A DNA stretch of 32,000 bases from Geobacter metallireducens GS-15 (GTDB lineage Bacteria > Desulfobacterota > Desulfuromonadia > Geobacterales > Geobacteraceae), in NCBI RefSeq assembly GCF_000012925.1, contig NC_007517.1, forward strand, positions 2,550,001 to 2,582,000. Direction: 5' to 3'. The notes beneath the pieces were generated by a model. The model searched no databases, was not told where the DNA came from, and was given only the letters and a program-made list of their open reading frames with translations. The translations under genes were made by a program, and so were the position numbers. Position 1 is the stretch's first letter. The number at the start of each line of letters is the position of its first letter. Positions 10,008-24,522 of the stretch are shown here, one piece after another.

Positions 10008-10181
10008 TCAACTGAAGGGCTTGTTATCTATAGTAAGATCCGAACTAAAGAGAATCTTCCGTATGAAATTGGTCATGTTGATGTTGTTCAGAACGGCTAG
10101 GTCCTGGATTTTCCTCTTCTCGTCTTCGGTAACCCGGATCGAAATTACGTCGTACTTGGCATTTTCACTATATTTTCCCAT
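10008..10181 (-). CDS. small ribbon-helix-helix (RHH) DNA-binding protein, 57 aa
   Basis: Track ORF 10008..10205 trimmed to ATG 10181 (GGGGTGA upstream): MGKYSENAKYDVISIRVTEDEKRKIQDLAVLNNINMTNFIRKIL... Shares the Y(N/D)VIS(F/I)RVT(D/E)(E/D)E core with the 2507..2689 product. Confidence 0.55.
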   Translation of the reverse strand: MGKYSENAKYDVISIRVTEDEKRKIQDLAVLNNINMTNFIRKILFSSDLTIDNKPFS

Positions 10182-10314
10182 GGTATCACCCCACTCATGG
10201 TGCATTCCGCTTAAGCACCAACGGTAGTCCTAGATTTGGCAGTTGGAGAAGTCCTGCGCTCATTCCGCTTCCCTGCAGACCACATTTCAACTGCCGTTTC
10301 TAGATTAGTTGTTT

Positions 10315-11190
10315 TCAATTCCTCGGCTTGTAGATCTTGAGGAGCGCTTTGGCCATGTCGGCGGGGCTCTGGGCTACACTGATGCCGCACTCTTCCAGAA
10401 TGGCCACCTTTTCCGTCGCCGTCCCCTTGCCGCCAGAGATGATGGCACCCGCATGACCCATCCGCTTACCCGGAGGAGCGGTGACCCCGGCAATGTACGC
10501 CGCCACCGGCTTGGTCATGTGCTCCTTGACGAACCGCGCCCCTTCTTCCTCGGAGTTACCCCCGATCTCGCCGATCATGATCACTGCCTCGGTGTCCGGG
10601 TCTTCCTCGAACATCCGGAGTACGTCCACGTGGTTGGTGCCGTTGACCGGGTCACCCCCGATGCCGACGCAGGTGGACTGCCCCAGCCCCACGTTGGTCA
10701 GCTGCCATACCGCTTCGTAGGTGAGGGTGCCACTGCGGGAGACAACCCCTACTTTCCCCGGCTTGTGGATGTACCCCGGCATGATCCCGATCTTGCACTG
10801 GCCGGGGGTGATGACCCCGGGGCAGTTGGGGCCAACGAGGCGGGTCTTCTTCCCCTGCATGTACTGCTTTACTTTCACCATGTCCAGGACCGGTATCCCT
10901 TCGGTGATGCAGATGACGAGGTCGAGTCCCGCGTCTACCGCCTCCATGATGGAGTCGGCAGCAAAAGGGGGTGGAACGTAGATGACGGAGGCGGTGGCCC
11001 CGGTCTTGGCTACCGCTTCCCGCACGGTGTCATAGACGGGGAAGCCGTCGATGACGGTGCCCCCTTTGCCGGGGGTGACACCCCCGACCATCTGGGTGCC
11101 GTACTCGCGGGCCCCGTTGGCGTGGAAGAGGCCGGTGGCACCGAGCCCCTGGGTGATGACTTTGGTGTCTTTATTGATAAGGATGCTCAT
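10315..11190 (-). CDS. sucD: succinyl-CoA synthetase (ADP-forming) alpha subunit
   Basis: Track ORF 10315..11394 trimmed to ATG 11190 (GGAGGG upstream). [20 protein letters not shown]..., SRSGTLTYE and MGHAGAII (phosphohistidine loop) match the canonical SucD pattern. Confidence 0.93.
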
Positions 11191-11204
11191 CTGTCTATCC
11201 CTCC

Positions 11205-12365
11205 TCAGGCAACGGCCTGGACGATTTTTTGGGCGCCATCGGCCATACCGTCGGCGGCGACTATGTTGAGGCCGCTCTCGGCCAGCATTTTCTTGCCGAT
11301 TTCCACGTTGGTCCCTTCGAGACGTACCACCAAAGGCACCTGGAGCGATACCTGCCGGGCCGCCTCGATGACCCCGGTGGCGATGACGTCGCACTTCATG
11401 ATGCCGCCGAAGATGTTGACGAAGATTCCTTTGACGTTCTTGTCGGAAAGGATGATCTTGAACGCCTCGGTGACCCGCTCAATGGTGGCCCCGCCTCCCA
11501 CGTCCAGGAAGTTGGCCGGCTCGCCGCCGGAGAATTTGATGATGTCCATGGTGGCCATGGCCAGACCGGCGCCGTTGACCAGGCAGCCGATGTTGCCGTT
11601 CAGGGATACGTAGGAGAGGTCGTGCTGGGACGCTTCCACCTCGTTGGGGTCTTCTTCGTTGTAATCCCTGAAATCCGCTATCCCCGGATGTTTGAAGACA
11701 GCATTGTCGTCGAAGCCGAATTTGGCATCCAGGGCGAGGAGGTCTCCTTCCTTGGTGACCACCAGGGGGTTGATCTCCAGAAGGGAACAGTCACAGGCGA
11801 GAAAGGTGGTGTAGAGCCCTTCCAGCAGGTTGACCGCCTTGGGGGTGAGCTTCCCCGTCAGCCCCAGGCTGAAGGCGAGGTTGCGGCTCTGGAACGGGGT
11901 GAGCCCCACCAGGGGATCGATCGCCTCCCGGAAGATCTTCTCCGGGGTCTTTGCCGCCACCTCTTCGATGTCCATTCCCCCTTCGGTGGAGGCCATGACG
12001 GTGACCCGGGAGGTGGCCCGGTCCACCAGAAGGCTCACGTACAGTTCCCGGTCGATGTTGCAGCCGTTTTCCACCAGGACCCGGGTGACCACTTTCCCTT
12101 CCGGCCCGGTCTGATGGGTCCTGAGCGTCATCCCCAGCATGTCCCGGGCTATTTGCTGGACTTCCTGGTTGGTGCGGGCCAGTTTGACCCCTCCGCCCTT
12201 GCCGCGCCCACCGGCATGGATCTGGGCCTTCACCACCCAGGGGCCATCCCCCAGCCGCTTCGCCCACTCCCGCGCGCTCGCCCCGTTGTAGCACACATGC
12301 CCGTCCGGGACAGGTACGCCGAAATTCCTTAGTATCGCCTTTGCCTGATACTCGTGAATGTTCAT
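11205..12365 (-). CDS. sucC: succinyl-CoA synthetase beta subunit
   Basis: Trimmed to ATG 12365 (GGAG upstream). [20 protein letters not shown]..., ATP-grasp pattern, [18 protein letters not shown]. 14-nt gap to sucD. Confidence 0.93.
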
Positions 12366-22467: not shown

Positions 22468-22521
22468 GGATTCCTCCCCGCGCAGTTTGTTGTCGCTGTT
22501 CAAAACCGCTCCTGCATTCCC

Positions 22522-24369
22522 TTAACCCGTAAATGACTTTTCGCCGATGCTGATGACCGGAGCCGCACCCGATCTGATCTGCTCGAATTTTCCAAAAGTA
22601 TTCATGAGCAGCGTTCCGATGAAAAACCGGGCTCCCAGCACCTTGCCGTCGTAAAATGCCGCATTCTTGTTCTTGTTCAGGATCTTGGCAATTTCGTCTT
22701 CGCTCTTGTTTTCAATGAAACCCTGCAATTTCGGATTCGCGACCGTCAGCTGCCACAGATGCAGCCAACCGAGGAGGACATCCCCCATCGCCTCAAGGAA
22801 CGGGCTGGTCTTTGCGTATAGATCAAGGGAATTGCCGGCAGCTGAAGATGCAGCCATTTCTTCGACTATCCGTGCAAGACCCTCCCTGGCACGCTTTACA
22901 ATTGCCGCATACACGCTGATCTCAGCGTCTGCAGCCCCCTTTTCTATGGTCTGGTCGATCATCTCCAGCAGGTTGTTAAAATTAACCCTGTTGTTGCCAA
23001 GGATTTTCCTGAACATCAGATCCATGGCCTGAATGCCGTTGGTCCCCTCGAAAATGGTGGTTACCTTACAGTCACGCGCCAACCGTTCAAAGGGATAATC
23101 GGAACAATACCCATACCCCCCGGCGCACTGCATGGCCAGAGCGGTCACGGTCCAGGCATTGTCGGTGATATAGGCCTTGACAATCGGGGTCAGCAGTTCG
23201 ACCAACCCCTGCCACCTGGCACGATCCGCACCATCTGCGACCCCCGCGTTATCCATGCAGCTGCTGGTGAAATAGGCGAGACTGCGGCACCCTTCCACAT
23301 AGGCCTTCATGGTCAGGAGCATCCGCTTCACATCGGGGTGATTGATGATCGCCACCGATTTCTGCTTATCTGCACCTGGATATACCGATAGGCCCTGCAC
23401 CCGGCTTTTCGTGTAATCCACGGCATTCATGAATGCGCTCGTGGAAAATGAGAGCCCCTCAACACCGACCAGAAGGCGCTGCTCATTCATCATGTGGAAC
23501 ATCTCCGCCATCCCCTTGCCCTGCTCCCCCAGCAAGTATCCGGTACATTTTCCGCTGTCGCCAAATGCCATGGTACAGGTAACAAGTCCGTGCAGCCCCA
23601 TTTTGTGCTCAATGCCGGTACAATAAACATCGTTGCGCTCGCCGGCGTTCCCCACCCCGTCGGGGAGGAACTTGGGAACGATGAACAGGGACAACCCCTT
23701 GGTACCGGGGGGATCGCCTGCCACCCGGGCAAGCACCATGTGGATGATGTTACCGGCCAGGTCATGCTCGCCGGCAGTGATGAATATCTTGGTACCGGTA
23801 ATCGCGTAACTGCCGTCCCCGTTGCGGGTCGCAACGGTCTGCACCGCACCGACCTCACTCCCCGCATCAGGTTCCGTGAGACACATGGTCCCCATCCACT
23901 CCCCGGCAAAGAGCTTGGTCATGTAGCTCTTTTTCTGCTCTTCGCTCCCATAGGCCTCGATCACCTTGGCAGCCGCATGCGTCAGCTCGGCTGCCCCGTA
24001 AATATAAAAACCGCAGGCGTAGAAAACTTCGGACACGGCTGTTCCCACGGCCGAAGGGAAACCATCCCCCCCCACGTCGGGGCTGTCGCACATCGTCAGC
24101 CAGCCACCTTCACAAAATTTCTGATATGGCTTGTGAAACGATTGAGGGAACGTAACAGCCTTGGTCTTCGGGTCATAGAGGCATCCCTGCTGGTCACCGT
24201 CAACGGCGGTAGGGGATAACTCGGTGTTGGCGAAGGTATGTGCCTCGTTCAGGACCATCTCGTATCCCGCATGACTGGCATATCTCGGAAAACTACATAG
24301 ACGGTCAATCTCCAGCATTTCTTTCAGCACAAATATCTGATCACGCTTATCAACCAGTAAGTTCGCCAC
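22522..24369 (-). CDS. long (about 615 aa) acyl-CoA dehydrogenase with extended C-terminal domain
   Basis: Track ORF 22522..24426 trimmed to GTG 24369 (AGGAGA 7 nt upstream). TMCLTEPDAGSEVG, GTKIFITAGEHD and YTKSRVQG..., then FEGTNGIQAMDL, match the ACAD pattern. About 150 extra C-terminal residues. Confidence 0.9.
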   Translation of the reverse strand: MANLLVDKRDQIFVLKEMLEIDRLCSFPRYASHAGYEMVLNEAHTFANTELSPTAVDGDQQGCLYDPKTKAVTFPQSFHKPYQKFCEGGWLTMCDSPDVGGDGFPSAVGTAVSEVFYACGFYIYGAAELTHAAAKVIEAYGSEEQKKSYMTKLFAGEWMGTMCLTEPDAGSEVGAVQTVATRNGDGSYAITGTKIFITAGEHDLAGNIIHMVLARVAGDPPGTKGLSLFIVPKFLPDGVGNAGERNDVYCTGIEHKMGLHGLVTCTMAFGDSGKCTGYLLGEQGKGMAEMFHMMNEQRLLVGVEGLSFSTSAFMNAVDYTKSRVQGLSVYPGADKQKSVAIINHPDVKRMLLTMKAYVEGCRSLAYFTSSCMDNAGVADGADRARWQGLVELLTPIVKAYITDNAWTVTALAMQCAGGYGYCSDYPFERLARDCKVTTIFEGTNGIQAMDLMFRKILGNNRVNFNNLLEMIDQTIEKGAADAEISVYAAIVKRAREGLARIVEEMAASSAAGNSLDLYAKTSPFLEAMGDVLLGWLHLWQLTVANPKLQGFIENKSEDEIAKILNKNKNAAFYDGKVLGARFFIGTLLMNTFGKFEQIRSGAAPVISIGEKSFTG

Positions 24370-24477
24370 CGTTTCTCTCCTGTGCGATGATTTGACGATT
24401 ATGATTCTCCATAGAGTCCCGGACACTCAGAAAGAAGATTTGTTCTCCTGAGCAAGAAACCGGCTGCACCACCCTAG

Positions 24478-24522
24478 TTCGACCGTTCGGTTAATTATTA
24501 AACAAATAAAACGTGGTGTCAA
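24478..24522 (-). promoter_or_regulatory. candidate sigma70 promoter plus operator of the 12-gene beta-oxidation/Etf/sucCD operon
   Basis: Minus strand: TTGACA (24522-24517), 17 nt, AATAAT (24499-24494), then AACCGAACGGTCGAA (24492-24478). About 110 nt upstream of the ACAD start. Confidence 0.55.

Follow-up and report, generated by a model that had tools for sequence, protein, structure and literature searches.

EtfD, a membrane Fe-S protein with a structure and an assay from mycobacteria, connects the electron transfer flavoprotein (ETF) to menaquinone via the clusters D1-D4 and haem b (PMC13083937), and the idea has been traced in the same paper to Wischgoll et al. (2005) on Geobacter metallireducens. 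The DUF224/EMO proteins of syntrophs belong to the same family and have been proposed as the link from acyl-CoA dehydrogenase (ACAD) to menaquinone in strict anaerobes (PMC13083937; also PMC5101538), and FadF of Bacillus subtilis has been linked to fatty-acid beta-oxidation (PMC13083937). Then, how does a locus of G. metallireducens itself compare with these systems? Here, we analyse a window of 32,000 nt from strain GS-15 (NC_007517.1, positions 2,550,001 to 2,582,000), with the genes Gmet_2253 to Gmet_2277, in which a minus-strand array of twelve genes comprises Gmet_2260 to Gmet_2270 and one unannotated small gene. The exact genes have already been tabulated, with function 'unknown', in two genome papers (Butler et al., 2007; Aklujkar et al., 2009). 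Gmet_2267-2266-2265 are listed as 'unknown' in Table S2 of the latter, and Gmet_2268-2270 are named a fatty-acid oxidation cluster in the former (PMC1924859). A search of the searchable literature with the locus tags Gmet_2258 to Gmet_2270 gave nothing beyond these two papers, and the proteomics supplements of PMC7324539 held no usable entries for the array genes under their locus tags and guessed UniProt accessions.

Based on composition and synteny, we suggest that the array is probably a mosaic, in which an acquired fatty-acid-oxidation cassette has been fused to an older Geobacter electron-transfer/SucCD array, rather than a purpose-built pathway. This imported cassette joined to an older host array is the addition made here. 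As to novelty, the system is already known: the protein families, their linkage and the proposed mechanism are established, and the new points (the fusion architecture, the class differences between modules and the shared operator) are modest. A first-pass annotation of the sequence had asked why the ETF conduits outnumber the one visible ACAD and why a succinyl-CoA synthetase is embedded among them. For that question the mosaic matters little, since the genes are tabulated, the link from ETF and EtfD to menaquinone was first proposed from G. metallireducens and the role of sucCD has been discussed in print.

Pfam and NCBIfam support all twelve genes on the minus strand, in the order that the first-pass annotation had given. 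The main features, numbered from the first letter of the window, are as follows.

24478-24522, minus strand: promoter P1 (TTGACA-N17-AATAAT) with the operator-like motif AACCGAACGGTCGA directly 3' of the -10 box
22522-24369, minus strand: ACAD, Gmet_2270, 615 aa; Pfam ACAD N, M and C domains and PF12806 (Acyl-CoA_dh_C)
21613-22467, minus strand: hbd; Pfam 3HCDH_N and 3HCDH, start supported by a ribosome-binding site, orthologues likewise of 284 aa
20329-21558, minus strand: thiolase, Gmet_2268, 409 aa; Pfam Thiolase_N and Thiolase_C, above the TIGR01930 cut-off
18177-20255, minus strand: EtfD1, Gmet_2267; membrane cytochrome b / 2x[4Fe-4S] / CCG oxidoreductase of the D1-less subtype
17329-18111, minus strand: EtfB1, Gmet_2266; Pfam ETF, closest to non-bifurcating ETFs
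16361-17329, minus strand: EtfA1, Gmet_2265; Pfam ETF and ETF_alpha, last gene of cassette 1
14361-16346, minus strand: EtfD2, Gmet_2264; CCG/4Fe-4S membrane protein with the full ligand set, also a Nitrate_red_gam match
13531-14307, minus strand: EtfB2, Gmet_2263; Pfam ETF, closest to non-bifurcating ETFs
13346-13530, minus strand: etfB2-etfA2 spacer, 185 nt; 18-nt tandem direct repeat, long imperfect hairpin, T-rich tail and etfA2 ribosome-binding site
12440-13345, minus strand: EtfA2, Gmet_2262; Pfam ETF and ETF_alpha
11205-12365, minus strand: SucC, Gmet_2261; beta subunit of ADP-forming succinate-CoA ligase, NF001913 at 593 bits (cut-off 370)
10315-11190, minus strand: SucD, Gmet_2260; alpha subunit of succinate-CoA ligase, NF004230 at 478 bits (cut-off 336)
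10008-10181/10205, minus strand: ribbon-helix-helix (RHH) protein, 57-65 aa; weak matches to NikA-like proteins, DUF6290 and the RelB N-terminus
9034-9816, minus strand: IclR-family regulator, Gmet_2259 (Pfam), same strand, outside the range first noted
2713-8439, minus strand: module 3, with EtfB3 at 7624-8439, the ferredoxin-fused EtfA3 at 6130-7458 and EtfD3 at 2713-4680; an insertion sequence (IS) element lies at 4842-6041 on the plus strand

In gene order, the intergenic gaps are 54, 54, 73, 65, -1, 14, 53, 185, 74, 14 and 133 nt. These values, obtained with starts supported by ribosome-binding sites, reproduce the sizes noted in the first pass (from a 1-nt overlap to 133 nt, and one spacer of 185 nt). 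The etfA1 start overlaps the etfB1 stop by 1 nt, and EtfD2 starts 14 nt past the etfA1 stop codon. The two peptides quoted in that annotation are also found in the sequence. The 'aromatics island' of GS-15 spans 300 kb, and the array stands at its 3' end, with an integrase-like gene (Gmet_2271) and the istAB transposon Gmet_2272-2273 as neighbours on one side. Every gene position tabulated by Butler et al. (2007) (PMC1924859, Additional file 1) is the window position raised by 2,550,000; Gmet_2259, for instance, is given there at 2559034-2559816 (9034-9816 in the window).

Composition break and conserved gene order

The GC content at third codon positions (GC3) is 0.55-0.70 in Gmet_2265-2270 versus 0.79-0.83 in Gmet_2260-2264. 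The 14-nt etfA1/EtfD2 junction is exactly where the values change, from a GC3 of 0.55 for etfA1 to 0.81 for EtfD2. Upstream of the junction, the genes ACAD (615 aa)-hbd (284)-thiolase (409)-EtfD (692)-EtfB (260)-EtfA (323) form a unit, cassette 1, which recurs in three related loci, namely L083, L085 and L091. Both L083 and L085 are Desulfuromonadales-like contigs. Identity among cassette 1 relatives is 71-89% where measured. The genes of cassette 1 are also present in Malonomonas rubra (L092), where an inserted ThiC gene separates EtfD from etfB. In versions with an EtfD identity of about 68%, the cassette reads TetR-ACAD-(acyl-CoA synthetase)-EtfD-EtfB-EtfA, and the EtfD of the contigs with this layout clusters with Desulfobacterales-annotated homologues. 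Part A of the array (Gmet_2270-2265) would be a self-contained, laterally mobile cassette, which arrived with its own sigma-70 promoter and operator AACCGAACGGTCGA, and Part B (Gmet_2264-2260) would comprise the five genes with which an older array of Geobacteraceae begins.

Orthologues of EtfD2 (69-86% identity) were retrieved in 80 loci, nearly all from genomes and metagenome-assembled genomes of Geobacteraceae and other Desulfuromonadales, and cassette 1 occurs in none of these 80. Upstream sequence was long enough to judge in 62 of these loci. In 45 of them, the end of a short bcd-like ACAD lies under 400 nt upstream of EtfD2, with genes for thiolase, hbd and crotonase before it, and a second short ACAD often comes after etfA2. 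EtfD2-EtfB2-EtfA2-SucC-SucD is contiguous in four loci (L023, L024, L060 and L066), where EtfB3-EtfA3-EtfD3 follows SucD wherever the contig allows, with a gap of 17 nt in L023. The two closest relatives, Geomobilimonas luticola (L003) and Geobacter sp. AOG1 (L004), have the same array genes in a permuted order, and the small RHH gene again stands 3' of sucD at 80% identity. Judged by this gene order, Gmet_2264 down to Gmet_2255 is an old Geobacteraceae array, EtfD-EtfB-EtfA-SucC-SucD-EtfB-EtfA-EtfD, modified in GS-15. Three changes can be seen: cassette 1 stands where the upstream genes usually are, low-GC RHH and IclR genes lie between sucD and etfB3, and the IS element lies between etfA3 and EtfD3. 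Low-GC patches occur among genes of 55-63% GC, namely Gmet_2274 (28048-29127; GC 0.33, GC3 0.26) and the region 9034-10205 with the IclR gene (GC 0.47, GC3 0.48) and the RHH gene (GC 0.41). They suggest that DNA was acquired on several occasions in this part of the island.

The GS-15 genome encodes nine ETF pairs. Of its three sucCD pairs, two, 92% identical, lie in the aromatics island. The second of these belongs to Gmet_2070-2064, which is paralogous as a segment to the window array but has no etfB2/etfA2; it reads EtfD2'-sucC-sucD-etfB3'-etfA3'-EtfD3'-IclR, with a ferredoxin-fused EtfA, and lies beside bamM/bamN. Its six genes Gmet_2065-2070 (EtfD, Etf and SucCD) are 7- to 30-fold up on benzoate, and the IclR gene Gmet_2064 about 13-fold. 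It has been noted that two independent Logan assemblies, SRR9436585 and SRR9436586, both 100% identical to the window and with contigs across the junction of cassette 1 and module 2, break exactly at 14448, inside the 3' end of Gmet_2264. This break may mark the boundary of the segmental duplication common with Gmet_2070. If the two runs were RNA-seq, their contigs would be direct evidence for a transcript from thiolase to EtfD2.

Promoter P1 and the extent of the transcript

In scans for promoters and terminators that were crude, P1 at 24522-24494 agrees with 11 of 12 consensus positions and is the top sigma-70-like match in the region 8400-25000; the first-pass annotation had placed a promoter at 24522. 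The -35 box, the -10 box and AACCGAACGGTCGA are all kept upstream of the orthologous ACAD in L085. In addition, AACCGAACGGTCGA is found 3' of the two other best promoter matches on the minus strand. One, at about 2143-2099, is upstream of the ferritin-like/thioesterase genes Gmet_2254-2253. The other, at 759-706, is upstream of the frameshifted acyl-CoA synthetase gene Gmet_2252, where the motif at 706-721 is the perfect 16-bp palindrome AACCGAACGTTCGGTT. The common architecture is TTGACA-N17/18-(A/T)A(T/A)(A/T)AT, followed by AACCGAACG(G/T)TCG. The 13-mer has four matches at no more than two mismatches versus 0.78 expected, and none of 100 shuffles reached four; the motif scan found no copy inside the array. 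Both the conservation of P1 in L085 and the motif shared with two promoters support P1 being real, and the common architecture of the three promoters suggests a local regulon under a putative repressor. Through the 16-bp palindromic operator, which links the cassette promoter to two nearby promoters, both the regulator and the substrate that induces it could be traced; candidates for the regulator would be Gmet_2259, of the IclR family, and proteins of the TetR family. Given the promoter at about 2143-2099, Gmet_2254 would also start near the ATG at 1984 and not at the annotated GTG at 2194.

Two further observations concern these promoters. The frameshifted Gmet_2252 is visible at 54-389 on the minus strand as an N-terminal remnant of an AMP-forming acyl-CoA synthetase, which is 31% identical to the synthetase inside the distant versions of the cassette. 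A search for RpoN -24/-12 sites gave 11 weak matches versus 16 expected, none of them upstream of an array gene, and a dedicated sigma-54 catabolic promoter was rejected on this ground.

How far would transcription from P1 extend? No terminator-like site was found by the scan in the minus-strand intergenic gaps of the array, as had been noted by eye in the first pass, with the hairpin and T-rich stretch of the etfB2-etfA2 spacer to be added as a correction. Between P1 and the RHH gene, the minus strand has two weak terminator-like matches, both within the ACAD coding sequence. The total of terminator-like hits in the scan is below shuffle expectation. The junction between the two parts is of particular interest here. 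A hairpin stands 3' of etfA in L083, L086 and L092, with a T-run tail in L083 and L086. In GS-15 the 14-nt etfA1/EtfD2 junction has no hairpin and leaves no room for a native EtfD2 promoter. In L085, 33 nt past the orthologous etfA comes MEATREIYWNVGHGV, the N-terminus of EtfD2 with 14 of 15 residues matching. Since the junction is common to L085, the fusion predates GS-15 or is shared with a relative. The fusion would have removed the terminator of the cassette, and this loss would allow read-through from P1 into module 2. Judged by this comparison, transcription from P1 most likely continues into module 2 and plausibly on to sucCD-RHH; for all twelve genes on one transcript we see about an even chance.

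The point at which continuity may fail is the etfB2-etfA2 spacer. It holds an 18-nt tandem direct repeat and a long imperfect hairpin with a minimum free energy of -64.3 kcal/mol (z = -4.76), followed by a T-rich stretch. The first-pass description of this element as 'REP-like' is right in that it is an imperfect intergenic palindrome. However, an exact-pattern search found no second copy in the 32-kb window or in 89 loci, so the term describes its structure only. It is also absent from the multicopy tables held as text in Aklujkar et al. (2009), and an Rfam scan of the whole window gave no family above threshold. A homologue of the element occupies the same spacer in L029. More generally, hairpin inserts of 79-209 nt are found in this spacer in 16 of 61 related loci (L003, L009, L010, L025, L028, L029, L033, L034, L039, L040, L057, L065 and others). 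Their sequences fall into several unrelated families, and in many of them the arms consist of short tandem motifs (CACAGAG, CACGGAG, AGGTAA). L012 has a gap of 1.4 kb at this position, and the other 45 loci have less than 20 nt. As a separate observation, the etfB3-etfA3 spacer (7459-7623) holds GGCGTAGCGCTGCTACGCC, the core palindrome of a 24-member 'predicted short RNA element' family of G. metallireducens (Aklujkar et al., 2009, Additional file 4). Thus a second etfB-etfA spacer in the window is filled by a palindromic element.

Based on this spacer, a different arrangement is possible, although we consider it clearly less probable than the mosaic with read-through from P1. There would be two or more transcription units: P1 would drive cassette 1 and perhaps module 2, (etfA2-)sucCD-RHH would depend on an internal promoter or on processing or attenuation at the spacer, and the modules would not be strictly co-regulated. 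The fold of -64 kcal/mol followed by TTTTAAAAGATTTTT fits such a break. So do the position of sucCD-RHH upstream of the EtfD2 genes in L003 and L004, from which another order of expression appears possible, and the 320-nt gap between Gmet_2070 and sucC in the paralogous array. However, no promoter-like or operator match was found in the internal gaps, the gaps around sucCD are short (14-74 nt) and have good ribosome-binding sites, and in L023, L024 and L060 etfA2 and sucC stand 44-52 nt apart. Published expression data have also been brought to bear on the question. In a microarray comparison of benzoate with acetate, Gmet_2260 was 22-fold up and was the only gene of the array listed as benzoate-induced, which would agree with separate units. 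But Gmet_2260 was up without sucC, 14 nt upstream of it, and it is 92% identical to the benzoate-induced Gmet_2068; therefore its signal is probably cross-hybridisation. On balance, the proposal of one operon gains from the conserved promoter and from the 14-nt junction without terminator shared with a second organism, and it is weakened by the 185-nt hairpin spacer, the one exception in a series of short same-strand gaps.

ETF modules, SucCD and the function of the array

Gmet_2270 scores 327-383 bits against ACAD structures of 591-614 aa, mycobacterial FadE5 included, and its best PDB matches are 594-611 aa long. By homology, it is a long ACAD of the FadE1/FadE2/FadE5 type. For the substrates and electron path of cassette 1, we infer that Gmet_2270 would oxidise medium- or long-chain acyl-CoA and give the electrons to its own non-bifurcating ETF, from which the D1-less (FadF-like) EtfD would carry them to menaquinone via two cubane clusters and haem b. 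The turn of beta-oxidation would be finished by Hbd and thiolase, with the hydratase encoded elsewhere.

The paralogous ETF/Fe-S sets are 30-37% identical to one another. They are therefore old paralogues, as the first-pass annotation had said of the two in the array, and the same low identity rules out a recent tandem duplication. All three membrane proteins are homologous over nearly their full length to M. smegmatis EtfD in its cryo-EM structure (9OJN), with E = 2e-88 for Gmet_2267, 3e-88 for Gmet_2264 and 1e-113 for the module 3 protein. The haem-b histidines (His78 and His241 of M. smegmatis EtfD) are kept in Gmet_2267, Gmet_2264, Gmet_2255 and 13 homologues, and all eight cysteines of the cubane [4Fe-4S] clusters (Cys301/304/307/311 and Cys412/415/418/422) are invariant in the three window proteins. 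Pfam matches to CCG domains occur in two stretches per protein; the cysteines of the second domain are invariant and presumably are the ligands of the noncubane [4Fe-4S] cluster D2. The proposal that these proteins are conduits from ETF to menaquinone agrees with the conserved haem-b and cubane ligands, and the activity would follow by homology.

The modules differ in the linear [3Fe-4S] cluster D1, whose ligands (Cys503, 538, 581 and 584) are present in Gmet_2264 and Gmet_2255. In Gmet_2267 all four are replaced, by S at Cys503 and Cys538 and by D/A or A/A, depending on the alignment, at Cys581 and Cys584. The loss is fixed (S, S, D, A) in 13 homologues of Gmet_2267 at 66-82% identity. B. subtilis FadF and P. 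aeruginosa DgcB likewise have no D1 cysteines (PMC13083937), so the loss marks a subtype and not exclusion from EtfD. A D1-less subfamily with all other cofactor ligands kept is widespread in Desulfuromonadales and Desulfobacterales metagenomes. EtfB1 and EtfB2 have no DGDTAQVGP motif, with GAQADAGAGEVGG in EtfB1 and GMQSQDRGSALVG in EtfB2 instead. The best PDB match of both is the non-bifurcating Methylophilus ETF 1O94, where the margin of EtfB1 over bifurcating ETFs is modest.

The case of module 3 is different. EtfB3 carries the bifurcating motif DGDTAQVGP as GKQTIDGDTAQVGPG and scores 170-232 bits against the five EtfB chains of bifurcating complexes that were matched, versus 85-94 bits against the non-bifurcating human, Methylophilus and Paracoccus ETFs, and EtfA3 has an N-terminal 2x[4Fe-4S] domain. 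By these features, module 3 is a bifurcating-type ETF. Its partner is an EtfD-type membrane protein and not FixCX, a pairing conserved in other Geobacteraceae loci. A terminator-like site lies 3' of etfA3 at 6095-6082. In the 'third conduit' of the first-pass annotation, the ETF is consequently of another kind and the module is split by the IS element. Intact paralogues of module 3 in GS-15 are Gmet_0683-0685 and Gmet_2065-2067, and Gmet_1712-1714 are also paralogues in that strain. It is conceivable, though we would give it little weight, that a bifurcating-type ETF on EtfD could form an EtfABCX-like machine, in which EtfD replaces FixCX and couples NADH/ferredoxin to menaquinone. If true, such a machine would help to drive the unfavourable transfer from acyl-CoA to menaquinone in strict anaerobes, and the cassette 1 fusion in GS-15 would put the array under a fatty-acid regulon. 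The slight residual chance of novelty lies in this pairing of a bifurcating-type ETF with EtfD.

Classified by motif and ligand, the three modules are of three classes: one with a D1-less EtfD, one with a full-ligand EtfD and one with a bifurcating-type ETF. Because these are different biochemical classes, the modules are not redundant. The surplus of ETF conduits, which the first pass had left unexplained, finds its explanation in these classes and in the usual place of module 2 between bcd-type ACADs in relatives. Its ETF and EtfD would normally serve flanking butyryl-CoA-type dehydrogenases, absent here.

The embedded sucCD had been called unexplained as well, but the order EtfD-EtfBA-SucCD-EtfBA-EtfD recurs in Geobacteraceae and a published rationale exists. 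SucC is 85-94% and SucD 86-97% identical in Geobacteraceae relatives, and the SucD translation shows the loop GHAGAII, which we take to be the phosphohistidine loop of the alpha subunit. Geobacter normally turns over succinyl-CoA by succinyl-CoA:acetate CoA-transferase, and substrates that give acetyl-CoA directly need succinyl-CoA synthetase to close the tricarboxylic acid (TCA) cycle, with ATP gained too (Butler et al., 2007; Aklujkar et al., 2009). SucCD would close the TCA cycle in this way when acetyl-CoA stems from beta-oxidation and not from free acetate, because the CoA-transferase cannot run without free acetate. This rationale fits a beta-oxidation setting, so no special pathway is needed. 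Since the array is in our reading a mosaic, neither the surplus of ETF modules nor the embedded sucCD would be a puzzle.

Could the twelve genes nevertheless be one purpose-built operon, for a dicarboxylyl-CoA or CoA-recycling pathway in which the succinyl-CoA synthetase acts on a pathway intermediate and two ETF conduits serve one dehydrogenase? The single strand and tight spacing of the genes would suit such a pathway, and the thioesterase gene has the same operator motif. In relatives and in the GS-15 paralogue, moreover, the EtfD2/sucCD/ETF3 array adjoins genes of the lower benzoyl-CoA pathway that handle dicarboxylyl-CoAs, such as the glutaryl-CoA dehydrogenase gene Gmet_2075, and ech, a PaaH-like hbd, thiolase and thioesterase in L003. 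We nevertheless regard it as unlikely: the halves of the array differ in composition and phylogenetic distribution, cassette 1 stands complete and bounded by terminators alone in other taxa, the locus is not benzoate-induced, and SucC and SucD pass the succinate-CoA ligase equivalog cut-offs while SucC falls below the malate-CoA ligase threshold of NCBIfam. As for the dicarboxylyl-CoA idea itself, it does not suit cassette 1, with its FadE5/FadE1-like ACAD and with acyl-CoA synthetase and TetR neighbours in relatives, and finds an echo in the benzoate/glutaryl-CoA setting of the paralogous array.

That the locus is largely redundant island cargo in decay, a duplicate of the benzoate-induced array with an imported cassette and little or no expression or function in GS-15, is improbable: the IS element in module 3, the frameshift in Gmet_2252 under the same operator, the integrase-like and istAB genes at the flank, the number of ETF and sucCD pairs in GS-15 and the lack of induction in the published benzoate versus acetate data speak for it, but none of the twelve reading frames is disrupted, cofactor ligands are conserved, ribosome-binding sites are good, the codon usage of Part B is host-like, and a second organism, with proteins about 80-89% identical, has kept the fusion of cassette and module 2.

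Several points weigh against the mosaic of a working cassette read through into the older array. The published list of genes that differ at least 2-fold between benzoate and acetate, the only condition found in the searchable literature, does not include Gmet_2261-2270. The spacer hairpin and its T-rich tail could attenuate, stop or process the transcript, and the frameshift in Gmet_2252, which has the common operator, means that the pathway may be partly decayed. Within the array there is neither an enoyl-CoA hydratase gene nor a cognate ACAD for module 2. Finally, the substrate range of cassette 1 is taken from family membership, and its putative lateral origin from composition and patchy distribution rather than from a phylogeny.

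Comparison with known systems

Among the described systems, the mycobacterial EtfD (Rv0338c / MSMEG_0690; 9OJN) shares with the three window proteins a transmembrane cytochrome b domain, two histidine haem ligands, two cubane motifs and two CCG domains, and the alignment extends over nearly the full length (E 1e-88 to 1e-113). Like the mycobacterial system, cassette 1 has an ACAD of the long FadE5-like type, and the role from ETF to menaquinone would be held in common by homology. However, the window proteins are without the disordered C-terminal tail of about 30 kDa, Gmet_2267 is without the four D1 cysteines, and the window genes stand in tight clusters with etfBA. In the absence of the D1 cysteines, Gmet_2267 resembles FadF of B. 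subtilis and DgcB of P. aeruginosa, compared here by their description in PMC13083937.

The DUF224/EMO ETF:(methyl)menaquinone oxidoreductases of Syntrophus aciditrophicus and Syntrophomonas wolfei are similar by description, being membrane CCG/4Fe-4S proteins beside etfAB. The reaction in syntrophs, however, is believed to depend on reverse electron transport or to proceed in the opposite direction. The bifurcating ETFs (T. maritima EtfABCX 7KOE; A. woodii CarDE 6FAH and LctBC 7QH2) resemble module 3 only, in the EtfB3 scores of 226-232 bits and the motif DGDTAQVGP; CarE and LctC also have an N-terminal ferredoxin domain as in EtfA3. They differ in the partner, which in module 3 is an EtfD-type membrane protein and not FixCX/EtfCX or a soluble dehydrogenase, and modules 1 and 2 have none of these features.

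The closest system within GS-15 itself is Gmet_2064-2070, which shares with the window the order EtfD2'-sucC-sucD-etfB3'-etfA3'-EtfD3' and sucCD at 92% identity. In contrast to the window, its IclR gene stands at the end of the array and not between sucD and etfB, it is without etfB2/etfA2 and is not fused to a FadE-type cassette, and it is induced 7- to 30-fold by benzoate, which the window copy is not, save for the doubtful signal of Gmet_2260.

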